Assembly (NCBI GenBank): GCA_002440965.1
Contig: DJWJ01000031.1
Span: 6,348 to 70,347, forward strand
Origin: Candidatus Omnitrophica bacterium UBA6233
Lineage (GTDB): Bacteria > Omnitrophota > Gorgyraeia > Gygaellales > Profunditerraquicolaceae
Length of the DNA stretch: 64,000 nt
Direction: 5' to 3'
The translations under genes and the position numbers were made by a program. Numbering within the stretch: the stretch's first letter is position 1; every line of letters begins with the position of its first letter. Shown here piece after piece: positions 3,532-40,183 of the stretch. The notes beneath the pieces are model-generated. The model was not told the origin of the DNA, ran no database searches, and was given only the letters and a program-made list of their open reading frames with translations.

Positions 3532-3575
3532 GAAAAAGGTGCCAATTCATTACAATAACATAAAGGAGTTTAATA

Positions 3576-6126: not shown

Positions 6127-6128
6127 AA

Positions 6129-7231: not shown

Positions 7232-7259
7232 ATGGGCTCTGGCTTAATTTATCATTGTT

Positions 7260-18780: not shown

Positions 18781-18945
18781 ATGAAGTTTGCCTTCGTTTT
18801 TCTTATTTGTCTCTTAGGCATGATGCTGCCATGGAGGCTTAGGGTTATTTATTGCGATATCCTTGGTTGGATATTGCAAGGTGTTTATATGGCATATTTT
18901 TTCATTCTTAAGACCATTATAAGTTCCCTTAAGAAAAATAAATGA
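18781..18945 (+). CDS. 54-aa hydrophobic miniprotein, ATGA-coupled to downstream gene (tentative)
   Basis: MKFAFVFLICLLGMMLPW... Stop TGA at 18943-18945 overlaps the ATG at 18942 of the PP-loop gene. Confidence 0.25.
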   Translation: MKFAFVFLICLLGMMLPWRLRVIYCDILGWILQGVYMAYFFILKTIISSLKKNK

Positions 18946-19781
18946 AGAATACAGAAGAGATAGCTGTTTTATATTCAGGCGGGACAGATTCGACGTGTGC
19001 TGCCGCTTTGGTGGCAGAAAAATTCCAGAAAGTACATTTATTGACTTATAAGCGTTTTGGAATATCTTCGGCAGAGCATTCAGTGCTCAATGCTCAGAAA
19101 TTGAAGGAGAAGTTCGGCCAAGAAAAGTTTATCCATTCTATTCTGGATGTGGATAGACTATGCAAGAATATCTCTTATTCCAGGTATCTTTACTATGCAA
19201 AAAAATACGGGTTTTTCCTTCTTACCTGTGGTCCCTGCAAACTTACTTTACATTTACGTAGTTTGATTTATTGTTTGGATCAGGATATCGGATATGCCTG
19301 TGATGGAGCGAACAAAAATATGCTTGGTATTTTTCCGGATCAGATGGAAGAGGTGATCGATGAGTTAAGAAATCTTTACCTTTCTTACGGAGTTAAGTAT
19401 GTTACTCCGGTTTTTGATTTTGATTATCCCAATAACATTGAATGGGCCGATAAACTTGGGTTTAAAGAGTTGTTCGGAGAGGATATTTCCGGGGCCGAAA
19501 CCCCTGGAGTGACTACAGGTAAAGCGTTATACCAAATGAATATTTTGCCCTCCGAAAATATCAAAGGCACTAAATTCGACCGGAAAATGCAGATTAGGTG
19601 TTTCCAGTTCACGTTATTTCATATCTTTGCAAACGGATATTATATTCCCATATACGGATTGGATAAATATAGAAAAGCCTTTATGGATTTTTATAAAGAG
19701 AAAATTTTAGACTACAGAATAATGATCGATGAGTATTTGAATAAGGGCGATAAAAGCCGCCTTCATTATTTGCTTCATTAG
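18942..19781 (+). CDS. PP-loop superfamily ATP pyrophosphatase (N-type), possibly N-acetyl-sugar amidotransferase/QueC-like
   Basis: AVLYSGGTDSTCAA is an SGGxDS PP-loop. CGPC motif. 279 aa. Confidence 0.55.
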   Translation: MKNTEEIAVLYSGGTDSTCAAALVAEKFQKVHLLTYKRFGISSAEHSVLNAQKLKEKFGQEKFIHSILDVDRLCKNISYSRYLYYAKKYGFFLLTCGPCKLTLHLRSLIYCLDQDIGYACDGANKNMLGIFPDQMEEVIDELRNLYLSYGVKYVTPVFDFDYPNNIEWADKLGFKELFGEDISGAETPGVTTGKALYQMNILPSENIKGTKFDRKMQIRCFQFTLFHIFANGYYIPIYGLDKYRKAFMDFYKEKILDYRIMIDEYLNKGDKSRLHYLLH

Positions 19782-23206: not shown

Positions 23207-24198
23207 AATTACAGGATAAACTTGAATCTTTAGTTTCAATGTTAAAAGCAAGATTCTTAGGTAAGCGGATTCCTCTTGCCGTGCGCCTGCAGGTGACGAA
23301 TCGTTGTACCTTGCAATGTAAATATTGCAACCTTTGGAATTCCGAGAAAAGCGAGCTTGGAACCGGAGATATCCTTAGGTTAATAAAAGAGCTTGCATCT
23401 CTGGGGACCAAGAGGATTTCGATCAGCGGAGGTGAGCCGTTACTAAGAGCCGATATCGCCGAGATTATCGATTGTTGTTGGAAAAACGGGATTTATCCCG
23501 AGATGAACTCCAACGGTTCGGTAGTCCCGGAGAAAATCGGGGTCGTCAAAAAGATCGATTTCCTTAAACTCAGCCTTGATGGTCCTGAAGAAATCCATGA
23601 TTATGTCAGAGGGGCTGGTTCCTACAGGAGGGTAATAGAGGCCGCAGAGGCTGCATTTAAGAACAAGGTCAATTTTGGTTTCGCTTGTACATTAACGAGA
23701 TTCAATGTTAATTCTTTGGATCATATTCTAGCCTTGTCAGAGAAATACGGAGCTATCGCTGCCTTTCAGCCTTTAAAGCAAATCTATCGTGGAATAAAAG
23801 ACATCACAGATATTGCTCCATCGCCAGAAGAGTTCCGTTCGGCTATAGCCAGTTTGATTGTTAAAAAAAAGTCAGGTAATAGATATATTCGTAATTCTTT
23901 GGCGGGACTAAAACATATATGCAGCTGGCCCCACTATGCAAAATTGAAATGTTGGGCCGGACGTATCTTTTGTATCATCGATACTGATGGAACATTATAT
24001 CCCTGCGATAGGATAGATTATCACATGGAATTACCCAATTGTATCTCCTTGGGTATCGGGAATGCCTTAAGTCTGCTTCCTTATGTCCGCTGCGGCGGTT
24101 GCGGATTTTGCGGAGCTCTAGAATTGAATTATCTTATGCAGCTTAAGCTCAATGGCATGCCGTCGATTAGAAAAATAATAAATTTCAGGAAAAGATAA
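23203..24198 (+). CDS. Radical SAM/SPASM-domain protein (paralog 1 of 5)
   Basis: VTNRCTLQCKYCN (CxxxCxxC), GGEPLL. C-terminal Cys-rich SPASM region (CWAGR...DGTLYPCD...CGGCGFCG). Confidence 0.75.
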   Translation: MKLQDKLESLVSMLKARFLGKRIPLAVRLQVTNRCTLQCKYCNLWNSEKSELGTGDILRLIKELASLGTKRISISGGEPLLRADIAEIIDCCWKNGIYPEMNSNGSVVPEKIGVVKKIDFLKLSLDGPEEIHDYVRGAGSYRRVIEAAEAAFKNKVNFGFACTLTRFNVNSLDHILALSEKYGAIAAFQPLKQIYRGIKDITDIAPSPEEFRSAIASLIVKKKSGNRYIRNSLAGLKHICSWPHYAKLKCWAGRIFCIIDTDGTLYPCDRIDYHMELPNCISLGIGNALSLLPYVRCGGCGFCGALELNYLMQLKLNGMPSIRKIINFRKR

Positions 24199-26099
24199 TG
24201 AGCGGATTCGTCGGATGTTTAAATTTTGAGGGTAGAGGAGTTGACAAAGAGACTCTGCAGGTGATGTTGAAAACTATCTCACACAGGGGCTCCGGGGAAG
24301 GGGGATTTTTCGGAGATAAGAATTTTTCCGTCGCTTATATCGGCCCAGGGTTCTCCGGTCCCGGCGCTAAAAATGACCAATCCGCTATAGGTAGTTCCGA
24401 AAGAATTACAGTGGTTTGTGACGCAGAGATATATAATTGGCGGGAGCTTAAGGATATACTGGAAGCCGATGGATTCGTTTTTGAGACGGGTTCTGATTCC
24501 GAAGTCATCCGGAATAGCTATATCCGTTGGGGACCGGGTTGTTTTAATAAATTTAACGGCATATTTGCGTTATGCATATTTGATAAGTATGCAAATGAGC
24601 TAATATTAGCCAGAGACCATCTCGGGATAAAGCCTATATATTTTTACCAATCGGGCGACGTCCTGATATTTGCCTCTGAAATAAAGGCCTTGCTTGCCGG
24701 CGGGTTTGTCCCCAGAAAGATAGATTATCAGGCCTTGAATGACTATTTTTCCTTCGGTTTTTCGGTTATTCCTAAAACGCTTGTCCGGGGAGTTGAAAGG
24801 CTGTCTCCCGGCTCGTATCTAAGCTGCGGCAGGCATGGTTTTAGAAAGGTCCAATATTGGGATGCGATTCCCGCAAGAAGCAAGAAAAAAGCGATCCGTT
24901 ATTACGAGGAAGAATTTTCTTATCTTCTGGAGGATTCCATAAAATTAAGATTAAAGGGGGATGGGGTTAAAGGTATCTTGTTAAGCGGAGGGATTGATTC
25001 GTCTGCTTTGACATATTTCATTACCAGGGATATCCCTGGGATCCTTACGTTTTCAATTGGATTTAAAGAGAAAGAGCGCGTTTTTGACGAAAACAGGAAT
25101 TATGCTTCTTTGGTTGCCGAGAAGTTTTCCACGCGGCATAAAGATATGTTCCTTGAGGCAGAGAGGACCGATATAAATCAGCTTAGAGAAATAACTAGAT
25201 TCAATGATGATTTATCCGGTTATCCGTGTATGGTTGCCGAATTCTTTCTCTCGCGTTTTGCCGGAGATAAGGTTGAGATTGTTTATGACGGGACCGGGGT
25301 AGAACAGATTTTAGGAGGTTTGGATACCGATAAGGCCGATAAAGCCTTGTATTTCTACAAGGCGTTTCCATCCTGGTTCAGGAATTTTCTGGCCGAAAGT
25401 ATCTCTAAGAGGATTCCGGTGCGCGACAGGACTCCGGAAGATCTGTTTTTCAGGCTGAAGAAATTTCTCTACGGCTCAAAGTTCCCTCCCGAGGTTGCCC
25501 ATTTTAAATGGAGAGAGATATTTTCCGAGCAGGATAAGATTGGACTTATCCATCCTGCTTTGCTGGAGATGATGAATTCAAGGTCTCCTTCAAGCGTGTA
25601 TGAATATTATTATCGGAATGCCGGGGATGTTGCCTTGTTCGAGAAATTTTTATACGCCGACCAGAAGATAATATTGGAGACTCTACTTAAGAGATTGGAC
25701 GGGGTCTATTCGGCATCCGGCCTCTCGGCGAGATTTCCGTATTTGGACTACAGATTTGTCGAGCTATGTGCCGGGTTGCCTACGGAGTTGAAGATAAACG
25801 GCCTGACAAACAAATATATGCTCAGGAGGGCTATGAGAGGGAAGCTGCCTGCGTGGGTAATTAACCGGAAGAAACGGGGTTTGACTTTGCCTCTTAATCT
25901 TTGGATAAAGGGTAGTTGGCGTAAGATGATAAACGATATCCTGTTTTCTTCGTCTTTAACCGGGACATATTTTAGTCGCAGCTATATCGAGAAGATGATT
26001 CGGGAGCATAACGATAATAGAGAAGATCACAGCTGGAAAATCTTTAGTTTGATCTCTTTTTATCTGTGGGCGGAGATATATGATATAGATACAAAATAG
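24198..26099 (+). CDS. Asparagine synthetase (AsnB)-family amidotransferase homolog lacking the N-terminal Cys
   Basis: N-terminal MSGFVGC has Ser where the Ntn Cys2 should be. PP-loop LLSGGIDSSAL in the synthetase domain. 633 aa. Confidence 0.8.
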   Translation: MSGFVGCLNFEGRGVDKETLQVMLKTISHRGSGEGGFFGDKNFSVAYIGPGFSGPGAKNDQSAIGSSERITVVCDAEIYNWRELKDILEADGFVFETGSDSEVIRNSYIRWGPGCFNKFNGIFALCIFDKYANELILARDHLGIKPIYFYQSGDVLIFASEIKALLAGGFVPRKIDYQALNDYFSFGFSVIPKTLVRGVERLSPGSYLSCGRHGFRKVQYWDAIPARSKKKAIRYYEEEFSYLLEDSIKLRLKGDGVKGILLSGGIDSSALTYFITRDIPGILTFSIGFKEKERVFDENRNYASLVAEKFSTRHKDMFLEAERTDINQLREITRFNDDLSGYPCMVAEFFLSRFAGDKVEIVYDGTGVEQILGGLDTDKADKALYFYKAFPSWFRNFLAESISKRIPVRDRTPEDLFFRLKKFLYGSKFPPEVAHFKWREIFSEQDKIGLIHPALLEMMNSRSPSSVYEYYYRNAGDVALFEKFLYADQKIILETLLKRLDGVYSASGLSARFPYLDYRFVELCAGLPTELKINGLTNKYMLRRAMRGKLPAWVINRKKRGLTLPLNLWIKGSWRKMINDILFSSSLTGTYFSRSYIEKMIREHNDNREDHSWKIFSLISFYLWAEIYDIDTK

Positions 26100-26158
26100 G
26101 TTATTGAGCCGCTGGAAAAATACTTTTGCAGATTCGGACTTAAAGAGAAAGGCAGGGA

Positions 26159-27385
26159 ATGATGAAATCCGCAGGAATAATCAAGAAATGCTTTTCGGTC
26201 GTATTGGGCATACTGGTAATTTTACTTATACTTGAAATGATTTTGAGGGTTTCCGGTTGTCTTTATTTCTTTCTTCGCCGGGACCGGCAGATGATAGAAA
26301 GATTGAATGATGGAAAAAGCAAGTATGCGATCTTATGTTTGGGTGAGTCATTCACATACGGGGGCGAGCTTGACCCTAAATATTCATACCCCCGTCAATT
26401 GCAGGATATCTTCGATAAGCGTAATCCCGGCGCAAATGTTCTAGTCGTAAACGGGGGTATCTGCGAATATAATTCTTCCCAGGTCCTCGAAAATTTACTT
26501 AGGAATATCCGTAAGTATAAGCCTAAGCTGATTGTTTTACTGGTAGGCTCCAGCAATAGGTTTAACTTTATAGGTTTTAGCCAGGATAGTTCTATAATTT
26601 CGGAATCCAGGCAGTTTGTATATCGACTCAGGGTATACAAATTATTCAAGATAGCCGCGCTTAACTTAAGGCAAAAGCTCTTCGAGATGAGGGTAGGCAA
26701 GGAAATAGATAAGATTTCAGGTAAGCTGGAACGTTACGCGTTCCTGGATGCTATCGATCCCGATAAACACATTCTTGAGGATATTGCGGACGAAAACCAT
26801 GACTTGATAGTATGCCTCAGGAGATTGGGTGACGAAAAATCCTTTCTGGAGTTATTTAAGAAATATACCGGAGAACATCAGGATCCTTATCTTTTACAAT
26901 ACCAGGTATCCGAGTTTATGGAAGATATATACGGCGGGACTAACAAGGATTCGAAGACTATTCTTTCTGAGATGCAAAAGAAGCTAAAGGAGGCTCCGGA
27001 TCTGAAGGATAATAAGAATTTCTTCTTTTACTATTATTTATTCTTCAAAAAGATGAAAGACATTTATAGCGATGAGCGCATAGATAATTGGTTAAGAAAC
27101 GATTTAGAAAAAATAGCGGAGATTTGCCGTAAAAACAACATCAAGCTGGTTCTCCAGGAGTATCCATATCCTTATCCTGACGCTAATGCTGTCTTGCGCA
27201 AGATAGCGGAAAAATATTCGTTACCGCTGGTCAGAAACGGCAAGGGTTTCGGAGAGTTAATTATGAAAGAAGGCAAGAAACGTTACTTCCTCGATGACAG
27301 CCACTGCACCGCGGCGGGTTACGGAGTTATGGCCAAGAATGTCTACGAAGTGATTGAGCCGGAGGTATCCGGGAAGAGACATTAA
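26159..27385 (+). CDS. Membrane-anchored SGNH/GDSL-like hydrolase
   Basis: N-terminal TM. LGESFTYG (block I, GDSxT-like). C-terminal DDSHCT (DxxH). 408 aa. Confidence 0.5.
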   Translation: MMKSAGIIKKCFSVVLGILVILLILEMILRVSGCLYFFLRRDRQMIERLNDGKSKYAILCLGESFTYGGELDPKYSYPRQLQDIFDKRNPGANVLVVNGGICEYNSSQVLENLLRNIRKYKPKLIVLLVGSSNRFNFIGFSQDSSIISESRQFVYRLRVYKLFKIAALNLRQKLFEMRVGKEIDKISGKLERYAFLDAIDPDKHILEDIADENHDLIVCLRRLGDEKSFLELFKKYTGEHQDPYLLQYQVSEFMEDIYGGTNKDSKTILSEMQKKLKEAPDLKDNKNFFFYYYLFFKKMKDIYSDERIDNWLRNDLEKIAEICRKNNIKLVLQEYPYPYPDANAVLRKIAEKYSLPLVRNGKGFGELIMKEGKKRYFLDDSHCTAAGYGVMAKNVYEVIEPEVSGKRH

Positions 27386-27399
27386 TTATTTATAATACT

Positions 27400-28377
27400 A
27401 TGAACATAGCCGACAAGTTAAATTTAGCATCCGCGTTTATAAACGCAAGATTCTTCGGAGCCAGGAGGCCAGCTATAGTGAATTGGGCTCTTACTTATAG
27501 ATGCAACCGTTCCTGCAGGTATTGCGGCGTTTCCGATAACAAAACAGTTGAATTAAGCACCCGGGAAGCGATTTCCGCGATAGATGAAATGTGCGATTGC
27601 GGCACTAGAAAAATACATTTTACTGGGGGAGAGCCTTTGGTAAGAGAAGATTTTCTTCAGCTGCTTGGTTATTGCCGAAAGAAAGGGATAAGTATAAGCG
27701 TAAACTCAAATGGCGCCCTGGTTCGGCAGGGAATAAAGAGTCTTAGAGGGATAGACGGGTTATCTTTAAGTTTAGACGGTCCCCAAGAGATACACGATGC
27801 TGTCAGGGGAGAGGGATCATACTATGAGGTTATGGATGCGGTAAAATACGCTAAGGAAAACAATATAAAGGTTCGGTTTACAACAGTATTATCAAAATTA
27901 AATCTATCAAGTATCGGTTTTGTTTTAAGGAAAGCCGAAGAGCTGAATACGGCAGTGATCTTTCAGCCGGCACAGAAATTCCTTTTAGAAACCAAGAAAA
28001 TCAATCCTATAGCAGCTTCTATTGTGGAGTATAGAAATGTGATTGCTAAATTAATAGAAAAGAAGCGTAAGAACAGGTTTATAGGTAATTCGTTGTCTGG
28101 TTTGCATCATTTATACCACTGGCCTTCTTTAATAAGAATTTCTTGTGTAAATGCTTTGGTTATTTGCCGGATCGAGCCGAGCGGGGAAATTTACGGTTGC
28201 GCTGATTTTAAGGGTAGGCCATCCGGGATTAAAATACAGGAAGCAGGATTCAGGAAGGCATTCTATAGCCTTGTGCCGTTAACTTGTAATGAATGTTGGT
28301 GCGCTTCTTATACGGAGCTGAATTGTTTGTTTTCAGGGAAACCGGATTCCATCCTTAACCTGAAAAAGTTGATTTAA
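27400..28377 (+). CDS. Radical SAM/SPASM-domain protein (paralog 2)
   Basis: LTYRCNRSCRYCG, GGEPLV, C-terminal SPASM Cys cluster. Alignable with 23203-24198. Confidence 0.75.
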   Translation: MNIADKLNLASAFINARFFGARRPAIVNWALTYRCNRSCRYCGVSDNKTVELSTREAISAIDEMCDCGTRKIHFTGGEPLVREDFLQLLGYCRKKGISISVNSNGALVRQGIKSLRGIDGLSLSLDGPQEIHDAVRGEGSYYEVMDAVKYAKENNIKVRFTTVLSKLNLSSIGFVLRKAEELNTAVIFQPAQKFLLETKKINPIAASIVEYRNVIAKLIEKKRKNRFIGNSLSGLHHLYHWPSLIRISCVNALVICRIEPSGEIYGCADFKGRPSGIKIQEAGFRKAFYSLVPLTCNECWCASYTELNCLFSGKPDSILNLKKLI

Positions 28378-28387
28378 AACATTATTT

Positions 28388-29371
28388 ATGGTTAGAAGGG
28401 TATTTAATATTTTCTATTGTTTATCGCTAGCAAGGATTTTTGGGATTAGATTTCCATTGCTGGTTGGCTGGTCAATTACAAATAGGTGTAATTCCGAATG
28501 TCTTTATTGCACTTCTTGGAGAGATAAAAAAGATGAGCTTAATACACAGCAGTTGTTTTCTATTATCGATGAGCTTGCTGAGATGGGTACGCAGAGTATC
28601 AGTTATACCGGGGGAGAGCCGCTTATCAGAGAGGATATCGGGAGGATAGTAAGATATACGAAGAGCAAAGGCATAAAAACCGGTATATCCAGTAATGGCT
28701 TACTCGTAGGGGGTAAAATTGACGATATCAAAGGTATAGATTCTCTTGTCTTGAGTTTCGACGGAGAAGAAGAGATACATGATATGCAGCGCTGCAGTGG
28801 ATCATACCGGAAAGTATTAGAAGCGATCAGATTGGCGAAAAAAAATGATATTTTCACAAGGCTCCATACCGTTTTAACCAAGAATAATATAGACTCCGTT
28901 GATTATATACTTGATTTTGCTAAAAGAGAGAAGCTGATTGTAAGTTTTACGGTGGTAGAATTCGATCCTTTTAGCGAAAAAGAAGAAATTCTAAAGCTTC
29001 TTCCCCAAAAGGAAAAATTCAGAGCGGTTATATCAAGGCTTATATCGGAGAGGAAAGATGGAAATAAATATTTAGGAAATTCGCCCGTTGGTTTAGAATA
29101 CCTTTTAAGTTGGCCATATTGCAAAAGGATGCTTTGTTCAGCCGGCAGGATTTATTGTCGGATAGAATCTAATGGCGATGTTTTTCCTTGCGCAAACCTG
29201 GTAAATGAAACTGTGCCTCAAAACTGCGTTAAGGATGGTTTTCGGAATGCTTTTAAGAAATTATCGCTGAATAATTGCGACGCTTGTTGGTGCGATACGC
29301 GTATAGAAATAAATTATATATATTCGTTTAATTTAGAAGCGATCTATAATGCAAAATCGATTTTTCGTTAA
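28388..29371 (+). CDS. Radical SAM/SPASM-domain protein (paralog 3)
   Basis: ITNRCNSECLYCT, GGEPLI, SPASM cluster (CSAGR...DVFPCA...CDACWC). Confidence 0.75.
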   Translation: MVRRVFNIFYCLSLARIFGIRFPLLVGWSITNRCNSECLYCTSWRDKKDELNTQQLFSIIDELAEMGTQSISYTGGEPLIREDIGRIVRYTKSKGIKTGISSNGLLVGGKIDDIKGIDSLVLSFDGEEEIHDMQRCSGSYRKVLEAIRLAKKNDIFTRLHTVLTKNNIDSVDYILDFAKREKLIVSFTVVEFDPFSEKEEILKLLPQKEKFRAVISRLISERKDGNKYLGNSPVGLEYLLSWPYCKRMLCSAGRIYCRIESNGDVFPCANLVNETVPQNCVKDGFRNAFKKLSLNNCDACWCDTRIEINYIYSFNLEAIYNAKSIFR

Positions 29372-29410
29372 GAACCGCGTTAAATCACTGAAACGTTTAG
29401 TATTTATTAT

Positions 29411-31015
29411 ATGCCGGTAATGAAAAAAAATAACTCCTTTTTATATTTAATTGCGGCCTTTTCGCTTTTAGTTACTTTGTATTGTCAGTTTCCCCTTTTG
29501 ACGAATAAGTTCGCAATAGATGATGATGTGCGCCAGGAGATCTATCACTATGAGCGCTATAGGGATAAGGATTTATTCAAGGATGATTTAATAGTAACGG
29601 ATTATTTGAAGAAATGGAACCCGATCGGTCTTAATTCTTTCTATTATTTAATAAGCAAGATATACGATCCGGTTCAATTTACGAAAATCCTGCCATTTTT
29701 TCTTTGCCTATTTTCGGTAATTTACATGTATTTAATTGGTAGGACATTAAGGAATGGTTCAGCCGGTTTATTGTCCGGCCTTATGTTTATTTTTCTTGCT
29801 TGGAGTAGAAAGGATTTCGCTGCTTTTAGCACTGGTAATGGAGAGGATTTCGGTATACTTTTTTGCATAATGTTTATCTATTATTTTCTCAAGAAGGATT
29901 CTCTGAAAACCGGGATATCTTTGGTTTTGCTCGCTTTATTCTATCCGCCTTTACTGATAATTTGCCTGTTGACATGCATATTTTGCCTAGTATTTGAATT
30001 TTCACGGAGTGGTATAATTAAAAAGAAAGACTTAATAATTTTAGCTTCTGTATTGTTTATAGTCTTAGTTACATTAATAATAGAGTATGGCGATGGTAAG
30101 ATAAAGATGTTGTCCTTAAAGGAAATGAGAAATATGCAAGAGTTTTATCCCTGGGGGAGAAAACCGCTTTTTTTCGCTTCATTTTACCGGCGTTGGACAA
30201 ATGCGGAAAGTGGGATAGCCTTGGATTATCCTGTCGCTTGGCTGGCTGTAGTATCTTTTTTACTGTTCTTATTTCGCAGGAAAAAGGCGTTAGCAAATTT
30301 GCCTTGTTCATTATGGTATTTTATTTTTATATCTTTTATTATGTTTATAATTGCAAATATCGTCATGTTTCGTTTATATGGTCCTTCCAGGTTCTTGAGA
30401 TACCCACTGCCTTTATTCCTGATCTTTTTTGTTGCGGTAAATATAAGCGATATAATAAACAGTATTAAATCTGTTCGCAGAAAGTCGGTGTTCTTACTCG
30501 GATTTATTTTTTTGACTATGCTTTGTTTTGTTCCAAAACTAAAAGCTCGTTATAGAATAGCGCCTTATCCTAGTCTATATGCTTTTTTGCAAACATTGCC
30601 AAAAAACGCGCTTATTGCCGGAGAGCCATTTTTAATGGATGATATTCCGACTTTCGCAAAAAGAAAAGTCTTGATGGATGATGAAGTTTCTCAGCCTTAC
30701 TTTGCGGATTTTTACCCGCTTATTAAAGAGAGGATTTTTGATTTTTTCGGAGCCTATTATTCGGATTCTTACGAAAAAGTATGCGATTTTTGCCGAAAAT
30801 ACGAAGTAACTTATTTAGTCGTGAACAAAAAACATTTTTCGCCGGATTATTTGACAGGGAAGTTTATTTATTACAATCCTTTCAACGGTTATATTAAGAA
30901 TTTAATAAAAGATAGGCCGGTATTATTGTTGGCTAATATCCCGGAAGAAAAAAAGATATTTAAAGACGGCGACATATTTGCGCTTAAGGTAGAAGATATC
31001 TGTAAGGAGAAATAG
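29411..31015 (+). CDS. Polytopic membrane protein (possible GT-C-like)
   Basis: Multiple TM segments. IDDDVRQE acidic loop after TM1. C-terminal soluble domain. 534 aa. Confidence 0.45.
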   Translation: MPVMKKNNSFLYLIAAFSLLVTLYCQFPLLTNKFAIDDDVRQEIYHYERYRDKDLFKDDLIVTDYLKKWNPIGLNSFYYLISKIYDPVQFTKILPFFLCLFSVIYMYLIGRTLRNGSAGLLSGLMFIFLAWSRKDFAAFSTGNGEDFGILFCIMFIYYFLKKDSLKTGISLVLLALFYPPLLIICLLTCIFCLVFEFSRSGIIKKKDLIILASVLFIVLVTLIIEYGDGKIKMLSLKEMRNMQEFYPWGRKPLFFASFYRRWTNAESGIALDYPVAWLAVVSFLLFLFRRKKALANLPCSLWYFIFISFIMFIIANIVMFRLYGPSRFLRYPLPLFLIFFVAVNISDIINSIKSVRRKSVFLLGFIFLTMLCFVPKLKARYRIAPYPSLYAFLQTLPKNALIAGEPFLMDDIPTFAKRKVLMDDEVSQPYFADFYPLIKERIFDFFGAYYSDSYEKVCDFCRKYEVTYLVVNKKHFSPDYLTGKFIYYNPFNGYIKNLIKDRPVLLLANIPEEKKIFKDGDIFALKVEDICKEK

Positions 31016-31018
31016 GAA

Positions 31019-32230
31019 ATGCCTTTTAATAAGATTCCTCATAATAGGGTAATAGTAAAAGCGGGGGAACTTTGGGGCATTCTTTTATTGTATTTAAGAA
31101 ACCAGTTGGTAAATGGCCGATACATCTCAGATTTCGAAGCGGAATTCGCAAGGTATATAGGTGTAGAATTTTCTATTGCTTTGTCTTCTGGGCGCTTAGG
31201 TTTAAGGTTAATACTTGAATCTTTAGAGTTGGATAAAGGAGATGAGGTAATTATGCCCGCGTATACTTTTTATGCTGTTCGGGAAACCATAGAAAAATGT
31301 GGCCTCAAGCCGGTCTTAGTAGACGTAAATGAAGATGACTGTAATATGCAGGTGGGTCTTATCGAGGGGAAGATTACTATAAGGACAAAGGCAATAATTG
31401 CGACTCATCTTTATGGTAATTCCTGCGAGTTGAACCGAATATTAGAGATTGCCGGTAAGTATAATTTGTTTGTTATTGAAGATTGCGCTCAGGCATTAGG
31501 GGCGCAATATTGCGGAAGAAGAGTGGGTTCTTACGGTGATTTTTCGTTTTTTAGCCTCGAGTCGGTAAAACCGTTTCATACCTTTGGCGGAGGTGTGATA
31601 GCTACGAATAACCCCCTCTTATATGCAAAACTAAGAAATCTGGTTGAAAAATTGCCTCGTCCCAGCTGTTATGGCATATTCAAAAAAATAAATTTTACGA
31701 TTATAGAGGCCATATTAACCTGTCCTTTTTTCTTTTCCGTATTTGTTTATCCTATTTTACTGGGCACATCTTTTTTAAATAAAGATTTGAAGGGCATCGC
31801 GAAAAAAACAAAAAATAAATTCAAGATTTTTGAAAGCAAGTATTCCAATTTTCAGGCATATATAGGGCTTCAGAAATTACGTGATCTGGATAAATTGTTA
31901 AACAAAAGAATTGCCAACGCCAAGCTTTTGATTTCCGGGTTAAGACCCGGGATATTTACTCAGGAAGTCAAGTCCTGTTTAAAGCCGATATTTTATTATT
32001 TAGTTTTAAAAAGCGGCAATGCTTGTATGTCCAGTAGAATATTGCTTAGAAAAGGAATCGATGTGGATTCAAATTTGGTGCAGAAATGCTCTGAATTTTT
32101 AGCGGAAGAAGAATATCCTATTACTTGTCGGATCAGTAAGGCAACGCTTTTAATTCCTGTGTATCCGCAGTTGAGTAATCGCGAGATAAGGTATGTTTGT
32201 AAAATAATAAACCAGGTTTTCAGCGAATGA
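31019..32230 (+). CDS. DegT/DnrJ/EryC1/StrS-family PLP-dependent sugar aminotransferase (with unusual hydrophobic insert)
   Basis: Aminotransferase N-terminal region, FSLESVKPF (PLP-Lys). Typical C-terminal. About 40-aa hydrophobic insertion at aa 215-255. Confidence 0.65.
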   Translation: MPFNKIPHNRVIVKAGELWGILLLYLRNQLVNGRYISDFEAEFARYIGVEFSIALSSGRLGLRLILESLELDKGDEVIMPAYTFYAVRETIEKCGLKPVLVDVNEDDCNMQVGLIEGKITIRTKAIIATHLYGNSCELNRILEIAGKYNLFVIEDCAQALGAQYCGRRVGSYGDFSFFSLESVKPFHTFGGGVIATNNPLLYAKLRNLVEKLPRPSCYGIFKKINFTIIEAILTCPFFFSVFVYPILLGTSFLNKDLKGIAKKTKNKFKIFESKYSNFQAYIGLQKLRDLDKLLNKRIANAKLLISGLRPGIFTQEVKSCLKPIFYYLVLKSGNACMSSRILLRKGIDVDSNLVQKCSEFLAEEEYPITCRISKATLLIPVYPQLSNREIRYVCKIINQVFSE

Positions 32231-33207
32231 AACTTACTCAGAAACTAAACATTATATTTTCACTTGTAGCTAAAAGGATAATGAAAGTCAAGGCCCCGCT
32301 TTTGGTCAGTTGGTCTTTAACTAATAGATGTAACTACCGATGCCAATATTGCGGTATTTGGAAAGAAAATACAAAAGAGTTAAATACTAGTGAGGTATTT
32401 TTCGTGATAGATGAATTATCTAGATGTGGAAATAAGGCGATTGCATTTACGGGTGGCGAATCGCTAATGCGTGATGATATTATAGATATAATAGACTATT
32501 GTTCTTACCGGGGTATATATACCAAGCTATCGACCAACGGTTCTTTAGTTAAGGATAAGATAAACGGGCTTAGCAAGATAGGTTTTGTGCGAATGAGTTT
32601 TGATGGACCGAAAGAGGTTCATGACGCCCAGCGGCAAAACGGTTCCTATGATGAAGTTGTTGCTGCTGTGGATTTGTTGAGAAAAAATAATATTAAAGTA
32701 GGTTTAAATTGCGTTATTTCAAAATTGAATGCAGGTCACATCAGCGATATTCTAAATGAAGCAAAAAAAATGGATTTAAGGATTTCTTTTCAGCCCCTGG
32801 AGTATAGGAATAATAGGGAATTTTTATTTGAAAATATGCCCAGTAACGAAGAATATAAAAAAGTTTTTGAGATACTTCTTGCTGAGAAAATAAGAGGCAA
32901 CAGGTATATAGCGAATTCGCCCATGGTGTTAAGTTATATGCTTAATGGTTTCCGGCAGAGTAGTATTAAATGTTGGGCGGGATTATTAATTTGGAGAATA
33001 ACGCCGGAGGGGGAAATTATGGCCTGCGACAGATTAGAGGGATCCACTGAATCCTACTCATGTTTGGACGGAGAAATAGGCAAGGCGCTTAACATGATGG
33101 GCCCTGTCCATTGCTCAAAAATGTGTTTAAGGAATTATACTATTGAATTGAACTATCTTCTGTCATTTAAACCGTCAACCATATTGAATTTAAGATATGA
33201 TTTTTAG
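32227..33207 (+). CDS. Radical SAM/SPASM-domain protein (paralog 4)
   Basis: LTNRCNYRCQYCG, GGESLM, SPASM cluster. Confidence 0.75.
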   Translation: MKLTQKLNIIFSLVAKRIMKVKAPLLVSWSLTNRCNYRCQYCGIWKENTKELNTSEVFFVIDELSRCGNKAIAFTGGESLMRDDIIDIIDYCSYRGIYTKLSTNGSLVKDKINGLSKIGFVRMSFDGPKEVHDAQRQNGSYDEVVAAVDLLRKNNIKVGLNCVISKLNAGHISDILNEAKKMDLRISFQPLEYRNNREFLFENMPSNEEYKKVFEILLAEKIRGNRYIANSPMVLSYMLNGFRQSSIKCWAGLLIWRITPEGEIMACDRLEGSTESYSCLDGEIGKALNMMGPVHCSKMCLRNYTIELNYLLSFKPSTILNLRYDF

Positions 33208-33213
33208 GTATGT

Positions 33214-34455
33214 ATGAAACATAAAATATTTTTTATTATAATTAATATTTTTATTGTTTGTGTTTTATTGGTAATCCTAGAGGTGTCTGCGCATTTAGTT
33301 CCTGGCAAAAAAGATCTTCTGGAAGAGATAGTTAATGTTCTTGAGGAGGATTCTTTGCTTTTTTGGAGACAAAAGCCAAACCTGCAAACAATGTTCCAGG
33401 ATTTTCCAGTAGAAACAGATTCTCTTGGCTTGCGCGTAAATAGATATGCATATCAGCAGGGGACAGGCCATATATTTAGAATTGTTTGTCTGGGGGCCTC
33501 GCCTACATTCGGCTGGGCCGTTAAATATGAAGATACCTATTCCTGCCAATTAGAGAAGATGCTTAATAAAAGTTACGGCAAAAATAAAGCATATGAAGTG
33601 ATTAATGCCGGAGTTATAGGATATTCATCTTATCAGGGGTTGCTTTTTCTAAAAAGGGATATATTAAAACTGAAGCCGGACCTTATTACGGTCGCCTATG
33701 GCCTTAATGATGCGGATAGGCATCGTTTCTTCAGAAGTAACGGTAAGAGCGATAAAGAATTAAAACCAAAGAGCTTATTCCTGGTTTCTTTGGAGAATTT
33801 ACTCAACAGGAGCCTGTTTTTCAGATTATGCAAGAACTTTATTTTTAAAGTAGAGAGTGTCAGGACTGAGTTTTCGGGTAACAAGGGGGATGTTTATTTC
33901 GGGAGGTTAAGAGTTTCTGCTCAGGATTTCAGGAATAATATCAATGAAATTATACGCATCGCAAACCAAAATGGGATAAAAGTTATATTAGTGAAAATTC
34001 CTATAAATTCCGCTTCTTCCGAGGAAAAACCCTTGATTCAACAGGCTCAATATGACATTGCTCTTTCTAGGGGATTGGATTATTTGAAAGCAAAAAGAAT
34101 AAACGATGCAATTGTTCAATTTAAAGATGCTCTTACATATGATTCTTCATCCAGCAGAGCTTTTTTTTATTTAGCTGCTTGTTATGAAATGAAAAAAGAA
34201 CCTGTAGCTGCTCAGGATTATTTTCAAGAAGCAAAAAAAATGCAAGTTGTTCAATTGAGGACGGATTTGGAAGTTTATAACGGTATAATTGAGGAGATAG
34301 CTGAGGCCAAGGAAGTGCCATTGGCAGATGCCGGGCCGGATTTTATTAGAAATAAAGAAAAAAAATTGTTCGCTACTCCTATTCATCCTAATAACGAAGG
34401 CCACAAAATTGTCGCAACAGTAATTTATGATGCAATGTTACGGTATAATCTTTAG
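33214..34455 (+). CDS. Membrane-anchored SGNH-like hydrolase with TPR-like segment
   Basis: N-terminal TM, LGASPTFG, C-terminal HPNNEGH. Paralogous architecture to 26159-27385. Confidence 0.45.
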   Translation: MKHKIFFIIINIFIVCVLLVILEVSAHLVPGKKDLLEEIVNVLEEDSLLFWRQKPNLQTMFQDFPVETDSLGLRVNRYAYQQGTGHIFRIVCLGASPTFGWAVKYEDTYSCQLEKMLNKSYGKNKAYEVINAGVIGYSSYQGLLFLKRDILKLKPDLITVAYGLNDADRHRFFRSNGKSDKELKPKSLFLVSLENLLNRSLFFRLCKNFIFKVESVRTEFSGNKGDVYFGRLRVSAQDFRNNINEIIRIANQNGIKVILVKIPINSASSEEKPLIQQAQYDIALSRGLDYLKAKRINDAIVQFKDALTYDSSSSRAFFYLAACYEMKKEPVAAQDYFQEAKKMQVVQLRTDLEVYNGIIEEIAEAKEVPLADAGPDFIRNKEKKLFATPIHPNNEGHKIVATVIYDAMLRYNL

Positions 34456-34464
34456 AGGGTAGAT

Positions 34465-35448
34465 ATGGATTTGTGGACTAAAATCGGATTTGCAAAATCA
34501 ATAATTCAGGTTATTCTTTTCTCGCGGAGAATTCCTTTGATAGTCAGCTGGCATTTAATAAATAGATGCAGCCGCAGTTGTATTTATTGTTCCAGGTGGA
34601 AAACAGCTACGGGCGAAATGGAAAATAATGAAATCCTAGGGGTTATTGATGAATTGGCGAAAATGGGAACTCGGGTTATTATATTTAGCGGCGGCGAACC
34701 GTTATTAAGAGACAATATCGGTGAAATTATAAGTTACTGCCGGAGCAAGGGTATATTTACCGGCTTGACCAGTAACGGGGATTTGGTAGAGAGAAAGATA
34801 AACGAGATTAAAGAACTGAATGTCCTTAAATTAAGCCTTGATGGTCCGGAAGAAATACATGATTTTCTGCGGGGTAAAGGTTCCTTTGATAAAGTCATGG
34901 AAGCAGTTGAGGCAGCAAAGAAGGTAGGGATACCGGTTAAATTTAATACGACCTTAACCAGATACAATATAGGATGCATAGATTTCCTGTTGGCAAAAGC
35001 AGAAGAGTTAGACATTCAGATAAAATTCCAGCCTGTTAGTCATGTGCATGCGCCGGACAGAGACATCAGCGATTTGCTGCCCGAAGCTAATAAATATCAA
35101 GAGACAATAAGCCGGCTCATTTATCTTAAGAAACGCAACCCATATATAATAAACTCGACTTCCGCACTTAAATACCTTTATGCTTTGCCAAAGGGCAAAA
35201 AAATTAATTGCTATGCCGGTAGAATCATCTGTTGTATAATGCCTGACGGGCGTGTTGCGCCATGTTCTGCTATAAGAGATAGTTTTTATTCCGTTAGTTG
35301 TTTATCCGTTAGGTTTAAAGATGCTTTTGATAAGTTGCCGCCGGTTTATTCATGCAAGGGTTGTTGGTGCACAAGCACATTAGAATTGAATTGTTTTTTA
35401 AGGTTTGATTTAGATACGTTTTTAAACATGAAGAATATGTTTAAATAG
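34465..35448 (+). CDS. Radical SAM/SPASM-domain protein (paralog 5)
   Basis: LINRCSRSCIYCS, GGEPLL, SPASM cluster (CYAGR...DGRVAPCS...CKGCWC). Confidence 0.75.
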   Translation: MDLWTKIGFAKSIIQVILFSRRIPLIVSWHLINRCSRSCIYCSRWKTATGEMENNEILGVIDELAKMGTRVIIFSGGEPLLRDNIGEIISYCRSKGIFTGLTSNGDLVERKINEIKELNVLKLSLDGPEEIHDFLRGKGSFDKVMEAVEAAKKVGIPVKFNTTLTRYNIGCIDFLLAKAEELDIQIKFQPVSHVHAPDRDISDLLPEANKYQETISRLIYLKKRNPYIINSTSALKYLYALPKGKKINCYAGRIICCIMPDGRVAPCSAIRDSFYSVSCLSVRFKDAFDKLPPVYSCKGCWCTSTLELNCFLRFDLDTFLNMKNMFK

Positions 35449-35523
35449 GTAACTGTAAAAATATAATATTAAAAAGAGGATAGAGAGAATAGGGATAAAT
35501 AGTTTAAAATGGAGGGAGTCGAG

Positions 35524-36261
35524 ATGAAGAAGCTATTTTTCTTATTGCTAATGAATATAAGTCTTTCCGCGACATGTTTATATGCGGGTTATGATTTAGA
35601 AAAGTATTTTCCTACTGGCCAGAAAGATATCTGGGCTTATTCTATGGTGGAACATGATATTGGACAGGAGGCGGGTAAAAATGAAGCGGAGATTGGCGTA
35701 GAAGTAAGATTCTTAAAAGATGGAACAGGGAATGACTTATATGGGCCTATTCGTATGTTAATCAAGTATAGCGATGGAGAACGGAATGAGTATTCTATAA
35801 GCAAGGATTCGGAAGGAATAAAGGTTAGCAAGTTCGTTAAAGAAAACAACTATTATTCCGTTTTTGAACCACCGTTTTTGTTGCTACCTTCTAAAATTAA
35901 CGAAGGAGAAACTAAAGAATATTCTGGTATTATCACTTATTTTGATTCAGATAAGGAAAAAGGGAAAGCAAAGATTAAAAGAGAGCTTACCGCGAATGGT
36001 TTGGAGGATGTAGAGACAAAAGCGGGCGTATTTAAAAACTGCGTTCGCATTTACGTTAAAGAGGTTATTAATAAAGAAAACGGTGAAGTAAAGAATAAGT
36101 TCTATACGTTCTGGTTTAGCCCTGAAGCCGGAGAAGTTAAAGAAGTCGTCAGGACGATTACCTTCCGTTTGGCGGAGAATGAGTATAAAAAAACTTCCTC
36201 CGATGAGAGTACGATGGAGCTAAAAAGAACTACAGTAAACGGGAGAAGTTTTGGTAATTAG
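35524..36261 (+). CDS. Secreted hypothetical protein (signal peptide)
   Basis: GGAGGGAG RBS 7 nt before ATG 35524. MKKLFFLLLMNISLSATCLYA is a signal peptide. Predicted beta-rich. Confidence 0.5.
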   Translation: MKKLFFLLLMNISLSATCLYAGYDLEKYFPTGQKDIWAYSMVEHDIGQEAGKNEAEIGVEVRFLKDGTGNDLYGPIRMLIKYSDGERNEYSISKDSEGIKVSKFVKENNYYSVFEPPFLLLPSKINEGETKEYSGIITYFDSDKEKGKAKIKRELTANGLEDVETKAGVFKNCVRIYVKEVINKENGEVKNKFYTFWFSPEAGEVKEVVRTITFRLAENEYKKTSSDESTMELKRTTVNGRSFGN

Positions 36262-36414
36262 CCGTTTGAATTCCCACCTTTTTATGCTAATTATTTCTCC
36301 ATAAATGCGTATAAAATTTATCTATTGGACGTTAATTTCTTTATTGTTTTTTTTCTGTATTCCCTACATTCATAATTGTTGTTCTCGCGATTATGTTTGG
36401 GAGGATTTTTAAAA

Positions 36415-38247
36415 ATGGGAAGGATCTGCGGTTTTATAAATTCCAATAGCGTTTCCGCGAATATTGCCAATATGCTTTCTAACTGTTATCCTGCGGGGGA
36501 GAAGAGCGATTTCTCAGGGCTTTATTATGTTGACAGAGATACTTTTCTAGCAGTAGAAGGAAAAGGCAACTTGGCGCGCAGCATGGATGGAAGGTTCGCA
36601 TGCCTTATAGATGGAAAAATATTCAACCTGAAAGAACTTTCCGCCGATTTCATGGATAAAAAGAGTCATGGAAATGCCGATTCTCAGGCAGCCGCTATAT
36701 TAAGTTTCTATATGCAACAGGGAACAGCAGCTTTTAGCCGGCTCAAGGGGTCATTTGCCCTAGTTATATGGGATTCAAGAGAGCAGCAGTTGATTTTAGC
36801 CAGGGATCCTTTCGGCATAAAGTGTGTCTACTATGCAAATACCCGCGGGGTACTTTCTTTCTCCTCGAGCCTGACAGGCCTTGTAAGAATGCCATGGTTT
36901 AATAAAGAGATCGGCATGAGCGGGTTTCTGGAATACCTATCTTGTGGTTATGTTAGTTCCCCCTCTACAATATATAAAAACGCAGCTTCTTTAAATGCAG
37001 GAGAATACCTTGTGTTTAAAGATAATGATGCCAGGATAGAAAATTATCGCCCTGTTGAACCCCATAAATGGTATTTTCATGATACTGGGGATATAGGGGA
37101 GCGCGAACTCGTAGATAGATTTGAGCGGCTCTTATTTAACGCTATAAGTTGTCGGTTATCCAAAACCCAGAAGACAGCGGTATATCTTAGCGGAGGGATG
37201 GATACCTCATTGCTTTGTGCCATGCTCAGGAATTATACAGACGGAGATATCGTCGCTTTTACCTCGGGGTCCAATAATCCTATATGCGACGAGACGCATC
37301 ACGCACAGGCGGTGGCCAAGCATCTTAACATAGAATGTAGAAGTTATTACCCGACCAGGGAGGATTTTTTTAGTGCGCTAGAGCTTCTACCGGATATCTA
37401 CGGACAACCCTTTGCCGACATATCCGCCATACCTACCTACCTTATAACGCGGAAAGTCGCGGAAGAATTCAGGATGGTATTTACAGGAGAGGGGCCTGAT
37501 TTTATGTTCGGGAATTACGATTTTCGTTCCCTCTACTATTATTATAAAGTTGTCCCTCCCGGATTACGCGGACAGGTTTCTAGGCTGGTCGGCTACATTA
37601 TCCAGCGATTCTATAAGGCTAGAATATCTCCAAATTTAGATGTCCCTGAACTTATGAGGCAAAGGGATTTTTTTTGGGTTTTTCTCCGGATGTTTAAAAG
37701 CGCTGATCTGGAAAACCTGGTAAGGGAATCAATTTATAATGAAAGCTTTTGGGTCTATAGGTTTTTGGAGAAGCGCAAAGATATTCCTCTGGCGGAAAGA
37801 TTGAGGCTAGCCCAGTATATCTGTTATGGTATTAATAATGTCCTATACAAATCTGAGCAGGCTCATAGCGCTAGCTTGGTTGAGTTGGTATGCCCGTATT
37901 ATGACGCAGAGTTATTCAATTTTGTTCAGTTTCTTCCGACGAAGTATAAATTCAGGCGATTTTTTGGCAAATATCTGCAAAAGAAACTACTCTATAAATA
38001 CGTACCTAAGAAGATGCTCGATCGCCCCAAAAGAGGCTTTGTTGTGGATTTTGCAGAGTTTGGCATGGCACCGTTGCGGGCCCTGACAGATAAATACCTC
38101 AGTAAGAAAAGACTCGATGAAACAGGAATAATAAATACAAGCTTCGCATTGCAATGCGTGGAGGACTACTACAGGGGAGACACCAGTATGGGGCCTAAGC
38201 TATGGACCCTTCTAGTATTTGGGATGTGGTGTGACCGTTTTCAATAG
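36415..38247 (+). CDS. AsnB-family amidotransferase homolog lacking an N-terminal Cys (second paralog)
   Basis: GGGAGGA RBS then MGRICGF (Cys at position 5, not 2). PP-loop YLSGGMDTSLL. 611 aa from ATG 36415. Confidence 0.75.
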   Translation: MGRICGFINSNSVSANIANMLSNCYPAGEKSDFSGLYYVDRDTFLAVEGKGNLARSMDGRFACLIDGKIFNLKELSADFMDKKSHGNADSQAAAILSFYMQQGTAAFSRLKGSFALVIWDSREQQLILARDPFGIKCVYYANTRGVLSFSSSLTGLVRMPWFNKEIGMSGFLEYLSCGYVSSPSTIYKNAASLNAGEYLVFKDNDARIENYRPVEPHKWYFHDTGDIGERELVDRFERLLFNAISCRLSKTQKTAVYLSGGMDTSLLCAMLRNYTDGDIVAFTSGSNNPICDETHHAQAVAKHLNIECRSYYPTREDFFSALELLPDIYGQPFADISAIPTYLITRKVAEEFRMVFTGEGPDFMFGNYDFRSLYYYYKVVPPGLRGQVSRLVGYIIQRFYKARISPNLDVPELMRQRDFFWVFLRMFKSADLENLVRESIYNESFWVYRFLEKRKDIPLAERLRLAQYICYGINNVLYKSEQAHSASLVELVCPYYDAELFNFVQFLPTKYKFRRFFGKYLQKKLLYKYVPKKMLDRPKRGFVVDFAEFGMAPLRALTDKYLSKKRLDETGIINTSFALQCVEDYYRGDTSMGPKLWTLLVFGMWCDRFQ

Positions 38248-40002: not shown

Positions 40003-40183
40003 TAATAAGTTTTTAATAAAGCTCTTTTATTAAATGAAGAAAAATGTATGGTTCTATCTATCTGAGAAACGTAGCGCTTTTAGAGATTTATCGTCTATAT
40101 TTGTGGGCAATATTCATATTGGAGGCAGTATAAATACCTGTTTAAAGACGTCGATTCCGTCTTATTGATGTCGAAATTTAATT

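Follow-up and report, generated by a model that had tools for sequence, protein, structure and literature searches.

Introduction

Asparagine synthetases such as Escherichia coli AsnB, proteins of about 555 amino acids (aa), carry an N-terminal nucleophile (Ntn, class II glutaminase) domain with the nucleophile Cys1 and a complete glutamine site, followed by a C-terminal PP-loop adenosine triphosphate (ATP) pyrophosphatase domain. In AsnB homologs without the cysteine, the PP-loop domain forms an amide via an acyl adenylate (acyl-AMP). Beta-lactam and carbapenam synthetases and lasso peptide cyclases are such cases, with a glutaminase domain that is kept yet dead, and in canonical members of the family ammonia can take the place of glutamine (PMC13060819). 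Glutaminase-dead AsnB-like adenylating enzymes are a known theme, for which the glycan setting considered here, in an uncultured phylum, is uncharacterized. In this study, we analyzed a stretch of 64,000 nucleotides from Candidatus Omnitrophica bacterium UBA6233 (contig DJWJ01000031.1; the window in the following), on which two genes of the AsnB superfamily, named A and B, encode proteins without an N-terminal nucleophile Cys and lie within a large surface-glycan locus.

AsnB1/LtsA acts in the amidation of meso-diaminopimelic acid. To our knowledge, it is glutamine-dependent and bears Cys1, as are and do WbpS of Pseudomonas aeruginosa O6 and Tanf_01265 of Tannerella, and we know of no Cys-less AsnB-like member that has been characterized in a glycan context. 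These three AsnB-like proteins are products of glycan-locus genes proposed to amidate sugar or peptide carboxylates (PMC6120980). Amidotransferases of the TIGR03108 type (XrtA/PEP-CTERM, ~630 aa) are also found in exopolysaccharide and glycan loci, and they resemble the A and B proteins in length, two-domain layout and end-to-end alignment. They possess Cys1, the motifs HRGPD, RRLSI and NGE, D98 and the D/E348-D351-E352 cluster, most of which are missing in A and B. The hydroxyamidotransferase TsnB9 (7ylz), a natural-product enzyme outside glycan loci, keeps SGEAADE with all three of E348, D351 and E352, unlike A and B.

Genes A and B and their start sites

The two genes and the N-terminal extension of B are located as follows.

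24198..26099, plus strand: open reading frame (ORF) A, AsnB-superfamily protein of 633 aa, N-terminus MSGF (NCBI MFA5062553.1)
36415..38247, plus strand: ORF B, AsnB-superfamily protein of 610 aa, N-terminus MGRICGF (NCBI MFA5062563.1)
36415..36429, plus strand: N-terminal MGRIC of B, a 3-residue extension with the ancestral Cys now internal; clade pattern MG[RMA][IM]C

A preliminary description of this DNA had read the N-termini as MSGF and MGRICGF, both without the nucleophile Cys, and frames, starts and homologs bear this out. ORF A opens with the codons ATG AGC GGA TTC, the ATG and the TAA with which the radical S-adenosylmethionine (SAM) gene upstream ends overlap (TAATG), and a canonical start further upstream is absent, 24198 being the first ATG, GTG or TTG past the preceding in-frame stop. 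The longest frame of ORF B begins at TTG 36376, and the ATG at 36415, with GGAGG 10 nt upstream, yields MGRICGF; none of the candidate starts (TTG 36376, TTG 36379, TTG 36397 and ATG 36415) gives M-C-G. The upstream alternatives to which the preliminary description had drawn attention thus provide an M-C-G start for neither gene. Homologs of B at 39-79% identity open with MGRIC, MGMIC or MGRMC, and within the extension the Ile preceding the Cys occupies the place of the ancestral Met.

The chance that a sequencing error or a wrong start codon conceals a normal MCG N-terminus is negligible. The sole point in favor is that AGC and TGC are one nucleotide apart. Against it, the exact A and B proteins were found on 8-9 independent contigs (NCBI, JGI, ENA, Logan), the A homolog P0002 (65% identity) carries the identical AGC Ser codon (TGT in the homolog P0003), an in-frame start upstream is absent, and many further glutaminase-site residues are altered. 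Because of these independent contigs, the codon of the homolog and the starts, the N-termini without the nucleophile Cys are real and neither an assembly nor a gene-calling artefact.

The NCBI source of both protein entries is a Candidatus Omnitrophota metagenome-assembled genome (MAG), where A is named 'asparagine synthase (glutamine-hydrolyzing)' and B 'asparagine synthase-related protein'. Both match Pfam Asn_synthase (PF00733; A 191.8 bits, B 178.3 bits, cutoff 21) as well as GATase_7/GATase_6.

A glutaminase domain with a degenerate site

A number of 103, then 39 homologs was aligned with E. coli AsnB (from NC_000913.3); residues are given in AsnB numbering with the Cys as position 1. In these alignments, homologs with Cys1 are essentially invariant at R30, G31, P32, D33, R49, L50, N74, G75, E76 and D98, residues which a structure paper on human ASNS assigns to substrate recognition and thioester stabilization (PMC6748925). 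The corresponding domain of A is degenerate.

24198..24842, plus strand: Ntn (class II glutaminase) domain of A, with C1S, D33G, N74D, G75A and a rewritten Arg49 loop; Glu76 and Asp98 retained

The site states of A are S1, S32, G33, D74 and A75, the canonical RRLSIIDL loop has become IGPGFSGPG, and there is no Arg within residues 31-68. Among Arg49, Asn74, Gly75, Glu76 and Asp98, A retains Glu76 and Asp98 alone and B Gly75 alone. The site of P0002 has S1, S33 and D74; its Arg49 is missing too in the 40-sequence alignment, although the larger alignment had put a nearby Arg in that column. The site of P0003 is intact. In B and its 16 relatives, the HRGPD motif is absent, the Arg49 loop is deleted, position 74 is Asp (His in two) and positions 76 and 98 are unconserved; B itself has D74, K76 and Q98.

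The preliminary description had allowed for the N-terminal domain being absent altogether, but AlphaFold2 models show it confidently folded in both proteins, each with a complete two-domain AsnB fold. The mean predicted local distance difference test (pLDDT) is 90.2 for A and 88.5 for B, and the predicted template modeling score (pTM) is 0.92 and 0.90, respectively; the former Arg49 loop of A (residues 53-62) is the only stretch of its N-domain with a pLDDT <50. As both proteins fold as full two-domain models with the glutaminase residues missing, the N-terminal domain is present but disabled. Because residues for glutamine recognition and the oxyanion hole are missing besides Cys1, A and B are almost certainly unable to hydrolyze glutamine, which strengthens what the preliminary description had proposed from the loss of the Cys.

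A retained synthetase domain with a remodeled acyl pocket

The motifs of the C-terminal domain are found at the following positions.

24984..25004, plus strand: PP-loop SGGIDSS of A, residues 263-269
25287..25307, plus strand: motif DGTGVEQ of A, residues 364-370, in place of SG(D/E)GxDE; T, E and Q at E348, D351 and E352
37189..37209, plus strand: PP-loop SGGMDTS of B, residues 259-265; S259, G260, G261 and D263 invariant in the clade
37483..37503, plus strand: motif TGEGPDF of B, residues 357-363; E348 and D351 equivalents kept, E352 equivalent Phe in most of the clade

As stated in the preliminary description, the PP-loop synthetase domain is kept in both proteins. Alongside the PP-loop, G347, K429 and K449 are present in A and B in the alignment, so that both show the synthetase-domain features of PF00733 (SGGxD(S/T), Lys429 and Lys449 equivalents, score over the cutoff). 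Dozens of positions in the synthetase domain are invariant across phyla in the B clade, whose column conservation is 0.33 for residues 1-40 versus 0.6-0.73 in the synthetase domain. Between A and P0002, identity is 59% in the N-domain and 69% in the C-domain; in the comparison of P0003 with canonical homologs, the opposite holds, the N-domain being the better conserved half. Judged by these patterns, the C-terminal PP-loop ATP-pyrophosphatase domain appears intact and under selection in both A and B.

At the acidic cluster E348/D351/E352, A has T/E/Q and B has E/D/F. E352 is part of the acidic cluster binding the substrate alpha-amino group, and the human ASNS variants E364A/Q and D367A (equivalent to E348 and D351) are inactive even with ammonium (PMC6748925). 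Across 118 homologs, all those with Cys1 retain both N74 and E352 (81/81), and 24 of the 27 without Cys1 have lost both; these losses fall in at least three clades, and the counts are therefore not independent events. In the Cys1-less homologs Asn74 is mostly replaced by Asp; in place of Glu352, the A lineage and two further groups have Gln, and the B clade and its sisters have Phe. Since Cys1, Asn74 and Glu352 are lost together, the acyl-substrate pocket appears to have been remodeled along with the glutaminase site, a recurring pattern in which loss of the nucleophile accompanies change in this pocket. The signature of these three residues, kept or lost together, could flag glutaminase-dead, misnamed cases across the AsnB-like family. 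In A, B and almost every aligned ~630-aa homolog, the alignment shows a gap at Asp384, so that none of these is a real asparagine synthetase.

Evolution of A and B

The N-terminus MCG is found in 96 of the 120 best homologs of A, and MSG only in the two nearest, P0001 and P0002. P0001 differs from A by 3 substitutions, too few to compare the divergence of the two domains. The next relative, P0003 (43% identity, Omnitrophica), opens with MCGF. With the site intact in this Omnitrophota relative and the Ser shared by the syntenic P0002 (65% identity), the loss in A is recent and occurred by point substitutions after the split from P0003-like enzymes.

B belongs to a subfamily of 17 members (P0121-P0137; 39-100% identity), beyond which the next matches fall below 30%; all 17 are glutaminase-degenerate. 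Besides MGRIC, MGMIC and MGRMC, their N-termini include MTKIL, MIAIY, MSGIC and MIC, and a Cys is kept behind the extension in 11 of the 14 full-length members. The top representatives of the B-profile open with [MV]CG in 131 of 148 cases. In a profile search of 1.84 billion cluster representatives, the AsnB-like family comprised about 95,000 representatives at E <= 1e-3 and the B subfamily two full-length clusters plus fragments, followed by a few sister sequences opening with MGAICG, MGAIFG or MSAILG and then by the canonical MCG/HRGPD/NGE continuum. The GTDB species representatives with B-type genes are MAGs of Phycisphaerales, Krumholzibacteriia and Fibrobacteraceae; members of the 'MGxI(C)G' clade were seen solely in MAGs, of several phyla. 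The loss in B happened in the ancestor of this old, rare clade, which also gained the 3-residue N-terminal extension.

A and B had been described as paralogs in the preliminary description. Their identity is only 22%; they do not stem from a recent duplication and lost the glutaminase site separately. The window holds two independent cases, one recent and one ancient, of the domain-decay route behind beta-lactam synthetases and lasso cyclases.

Comparison with described families

The TIGR03108 model scored best for both proteins (A 328.6, B 257.5 bits), far from its cutoff of 816.9 bits, and Pfam scans revealed no exosortase gene in the window. Both proteins also stay under the cutoffs of the hidden Markov models (HMMs) for the N-acetylglutaminylglutamine amidotransferase AsnO (TIGR03104; A 296.7, B 167.8, cutoff 570.1 bits) and AsnB (PRK09431; A 181, B 124, cutoff 499 bits). 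With TIGR01536, A reaches 302.8 bits, above the cutoff of 267.1, and B 236.0, below it. Because A clears this equivalog cutoff, it is named 'glutamine-hydrolyzing' in NCBI; the NCBI/JGI name 'asparagine synthase (glutamine-hydrolyzing)' is probably wrong, and a similar misnaming may affect other homologs without Cys1, e.g. P0193 and P0216, which open with MSG(I/L)CGW.

Among solved proteins, A is closest in sequence to TsnB9 (top Protein Data Bank (PDB) match, 3e-38), and B to E. coli AsnB (1ct9), followed by TsnB9. In the structural comparison (Foldseek), TsnB9 is the top match for both, with query template modeling (TM) scores of 0.78 for A and 0.72 for B at an identity of only 14-20%; AsnB comes next, and beta-lactam synthetase, human ASNS and the carbapenam synthetase CarA are close behind. 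With all TM scores against the PDB at 0.56-0.78, the fold fails to separate amidotransferase-like from lactam-synthetase-like function. E. coli AsnB and human ASNS share the fold, the PP-loop, K429 and K449 with A and B, and presumably the adenylation chemistry.

The preliminary description had likened the two proteins to lasso cyclases and beta-lactam synthetases. Membership in these groups fails on HMM scores and on position 348: the lasso peptide cyclase model NF033535 gives 217.4 (A) and 117.5 bits (B) against a cutoff of 525, the model of albusnodin/ikarugamycin-type macrolactam cyclases, NF033561, gives 45.1 and 26.8 bits against 300, and the residue at position 348, Thr for A and Glu for B, differs from the Tyr of beta-lactam and carbapenam synthetases. 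The Tyr of the catalytic Tyr-Glu dyad of beta-lactam synthetase is the residue that we take to lie at AsnB Glu348. With phmmer, A matches 1jgt (E = 9e-9) and 1q15 (E = 5e-7), and B has no match to either at E <= 1e-3. The context differs as well, A and B lying in a glycan locus in which neither a peptide precursor nor clavam or carbapenem genes were found. A and B thus follow the known Cys-less AsnB homologs in evolutionary logic, yet stand outside all those families.

The glycan locus

According to Pfam scans, ~10-61 kb of the window form a large ATP-binding cassette (ABC) transporter-type surface-glycan locus, which fits the glycan locus named in the preliminary description. It contains a Wzy_C-family protein, three PMT_2 (GT-C) proteins, many GT2/GT4 glycosyltransferases, a carbamoyltransferase, DegT, an epimerase, the initiating transferase PNPT, Wzm/Wzt, two membrane-anchored GDSL proteins and a stand-alone PP-loop ATPase. 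The genes nearest to the subject are the following.

18942..19781, plus strand: stand-alone PP-loop ATPase, 279 aa, SGGTDS, QueC/DUF7411-like
23203..24198, plus strand: radical SAM paralog r1, directly before A; same gene order in contig L002
26159..27385, plus strand: membrane-anchored GDSL/SGNH protein, directly after A; adjacency kept in L002
31019..32230, plus strand: DegT-type sugar aminotransferase, the only evident sugar-amine source in the block
38464..41767, plus strand: two PMT_2 (ArnT-like GT-C) membrane glycosyltransferases, directly after B

The block at 18.9-36.3 kb, which includes A, is syntenic with the second contig L002, mostly at 65-76% aa identity (47% for a 250-aa ORF). 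Its first gene encodes the stand-alone PP-loop ATPase (76% identity in L002), the third PP-loop (ATP-pyrophosphatase) enzyme of the locus, whose QueC and DUF7411 matches are weak and cover the first ~70 residues. The P0003 gene sits between genes for a B12-radical SAM and a ~330-aa radical SAM protein. On other contigs of Omnitrophota and Elusimicrobiota (L022, L023), the radical SAM/GT2/GT-C/GDSL module exists without an AsnB-like gene, which makes A an accessory enzyme and no core component of this module.

B-type genes elsewhere also lie in glycan- or envelope-related neighborhoods. One of these loci, L007, has the B-type homolog within a GT2/B/GT2/PMT_2 arrangement; apart from these GT2 and PMT_2 genes, the B-type loci of other phyla (L005-L014) have no partner in common with the window.

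The B-type loci of Krumholzibacteriia and Fibrobacteraceae MAGs (L006, L010, L012, L013) and of an unclassified MAG (L009) have partners of their own, unlike those in the window. A secreted Cys-rich protein of ~255 aa, 49-97% identical among the loci and without Pfam match, is encoded before the B-type gene in divergent orientation in L006, L009, L010 and L012, and a ~380-aa protein after it in L006, L012 and L013, which in L006 matches PF28590 (Lipid_A_deac). A promoter and terminator scan around B in the window gave nothing above shuffled controls.

Proposed mechanism and alternatives

On the basis of the sequences and folds, the lost residues, their pattern across the phylogeny and the surrounding genes, we consider it somewhat probable that A and B are ATP-dependent carboxylate-adenylating amide synthetases which use free ammonia or another amine and serve as accessory tailoring enzymes of the glycan locus. 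The PP-loop domain would bind ATP and adenylate a carboxylate with release of pyrophosphate; the acyl-AMP would then be captured by a nitrogen nucleophile not derived from in-cis glutamine hydrolysis, either free ammonia or an amine (an amino sugar or an amino acid, for instance), and the amide would be released as product. The dead N-domain may be retained, as it is in other members of the family without the Cys, to serve as a structural or ligand-binding module. In the genome, the two enzymes would perform accessory tailoring for an ABC-transporter-type, radical-SAM-rich surface glycan. What we infer for A and B thereby comprises the glutaminase loss, the retained adenylation, the nature of the nucleophile and the glycan substrate. 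The 'amidated uronic acids' suggested as substituent in the preliminary description are only a guess. Substrates, if found, would reveal amide-type decorations on surface glycans of the uncultured phylum Omnitrophota.

Several points weigh against this reading. A has Thr at the E348 equivalent, so that its adenylation may be altered or impaired; the same Thr occurs in the Cys-bearing relatives P0003 and P0019. A still clears the cutoff of the glutamine-hydrolyzing model TIGR01536 (302.8 vs 267.1 bits). Related radical SAM modules occur without any AsnB-like gene. Neither a UDP-sugar 6-dehydrogenase nor a NeuB-type (nonulosonic-acid synthase) gene is present in the 64-kb window, and with no sugar-carboxylate-forming gene there, the carboxylate to be activated by A and B is not evident. 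The window is likewise devoid of the uronic-acid-forming dehydrogenase gene expected beside O-antigen amidotransferases of the WbpS type, which make uronamides from a UDP- or lipid-linked uronic acid. The role of B may not be tied to the glycan of this window, since B-type loci elsewhere lack partners common with it. Finally, Ser, like Thr, serves as nucleophile in other Ntn hydrolases.

This last point leads to the question whether one of the glutaminase domains still works. A might be an amidotransferase in which Ser2 (Ser1 after removal of Met) acts as Ntn nucleophile on glutamine or another amide donor, with the ammonia channeled to the synthetase site. Retained Glu76 and Asp98 equivalents, an N-domain 59% identical to that of P0002, by which purifying selection persists, and the cleared TIGR01536 cutoff speak for it. 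However, A has other residues in place of Asp33, the Arg49 loop, Asn74 (oxyanion hole) and Gly75, its model has a pLDDT <50 at the former Arg49 loop, and Boehlein et al. are said to have found in 1994 that E. coli AsnB loses its glutamine-dependent activity on C1S or C1A substitution; we regard a working Ser as quite improbable. For B, autocatalytic removal of the MGRI peptide could expose the Cys as working nucleophile. Propeptides are known in some class II amidotransferases, e.g. PurF of Bacillus subtilis, and 11 of the 14 full-length members of the subfamily have the Cys behind the extension. But every member is without the HRGPD motif and the Arg49 loop, position 74 is changed, 76 and 98 are variable, P0127, P0131 and P0248 have Leu, Tyr or Phe instead of the Cys, and the extension itself is conserved, which would not be required of a discarded propeptide. 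Such a pro-enzyme is very improbable.

Other alternatives concern the chemistry of the synthetase domain. As in beta-lactam or carbapenam synthetases and lasso cyclases, an amine of the same molecule might attack the adenylated carboxylate and form a lactam or macrolactam. The pairing of dead N-domain and live PP-loop domain, the remodeled acidic substrate cluster and Foldseek TM scores of 0.56-0.60 to 1jgt, 1mbz and 1q15 agree with this, but we consider it unlikely in view of the NF033535 (217/118 vs 525 bits) and NF033561 (45/27 vs 300 bits) scores far under cutoff, the weak matches of A to beta-lactam synthetase and CarA and the lack of any for B at E <= 1e-3, a residue other than Tyr at position 348, the greater proximity of TsnB9 and AsnB by sequence and structure, and the fact that precursor peptide, RiPP recognition element (RRE)/PqqD and leader-protease genes (RiPP, a peptide made on the ribosome and then modified post-translationally) were not found among the scanned neighbors. 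A further alternative, to which we assign a low probability, is that A and/or B are catalytically dead pseudoenzymes acting as scaffold, regulator or substrate-binding subunit for enzymes of the locus. A is altered in both classical sites, with S1/D74/A75 in the glutaminase and T348/E351/Q352 in the synthetase site, and, save a 250-aa lipoprotein-like ORF (47%), no protein in the block common to the window and L002 is less conserved than A (65% vs 67-76%). Against this stand the intact PP-loop, K429, K449 and G347 of A and B, the dozens of synthetase-domain residues invariant across phyla in the B clade, and the 69% identity of the A C-domain with that of P0002.

A more specific idea, which we put forward with a low yet appreciable probability, is that the 'MGxI(C)G' clade of B and, convergently, the Ser lineage of A form a distinct class of envelope-glycan amide ligases. 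The dead Ntn pocket (Asn74 to Asp) would be re-purposed to bind an amine other than ammonia, for instance an amino acid or an amino sugar, and the acyl pocket (Glu352 to Phe or Gln) would take a sugar or lipid-linked carboxylate. Both would then be candidates for the largely unidentified enzymes that add amino-acid or amine amides to bacterial surface glycans.

Further genes of the window

The locus (18942-57980) is unusually rich in radical SAM genes, interleaved with genes for GT-C-like membrane and membrane-anchored GDSL proteins. Five paralogs of ~325 aa (r1-r5; 36-41% identity) are encoded at 23203-24198, 27400-28377, 28388-29371, 32227-33207 and 34465-35448, two more distant radical SAM genes lie at 41819-42850 and 43580-44599 (the latter with a SPASM domain), and three B12-radical SAM genes at 19790-21211, 56517-57980 and 52895-56533, the last of which encodes a 1212-aa fusion of a B12-radical SAM and a second radical SAM/SPASM part. 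Omnitrophota and Elusimicrobiota widely carry the ~325-aa family under the bare name 'radical SAM protein', and it recurs with GT2, B12-radical SAM, GDSL and PMT_2 genes in L022 and L023. None of the NCBIfam models reached its cutoff for the neighbors (radical SAM proteins, PP-loop protein, GDSL proteins, PMT_2). A search of the literature on Cys-less AsnB homologs in polysaccharide loci and on Omnitrophota radical SAM glycan loci returned nothing specific.

A RiPP system, with radical SAM maturases and an AsnB-like gene, was considered and rejected: r1-r5 are without SPASM domains, and the module exists without an AsnB-like gene in L022 and L023. In the single gap examined for precursor ORFs (17.0-19.0 kb), none was convincing, and Pfam scans of the ORFs >=150 aa (with one overlapping minus-strand ORF unscanned) showed no precursor, RRE/PqqD or leader-peptidase neighbors.

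The ORFs 21254-23206 (650 aa) and 29411-31015 (534 aa) have no Pfam or NCBIfam match; with 8-10 predicted transmembrane segments and a soluble C-terminal domain, their architecture is GT-C-glycosyltransferase-like, and they are 72-74% identical to their counterparts in L002. L022 holds 644-aa proteins of similar size, also without Pfam match. After the carbamoyltransferase gene (15265-17082) come a membrane ORF of 136 aa (17045-17455) and an ORF of 52 aa (17471-17629); a 60-aa ORF at 18510-18692 resembles the latter in a common 'KKWWL..P' motif and a transmembrane segment, and the related locus L022 contains a DUF5989 gene of the same size.

Upstream of the glycan locus, a small mobile/defense island extends from 249 to 8348 with the following genes.

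249-1274: IS110-family transposase
1327-1881: Thoeris ThsB-like Toll/interleukin-1 receptor (TIR) protein
3576-4874: Shedu SduA_C-domain protein
6419-7231: DUF6602 protein
7287-8348, minus strand: rve-type integrase

The ORF at 9927-10556, at the edge of the glycan locus, encodes a protein of 209 aa that bears an RNA recognition motif of eukaryote type (RRM_1, 72 bits).

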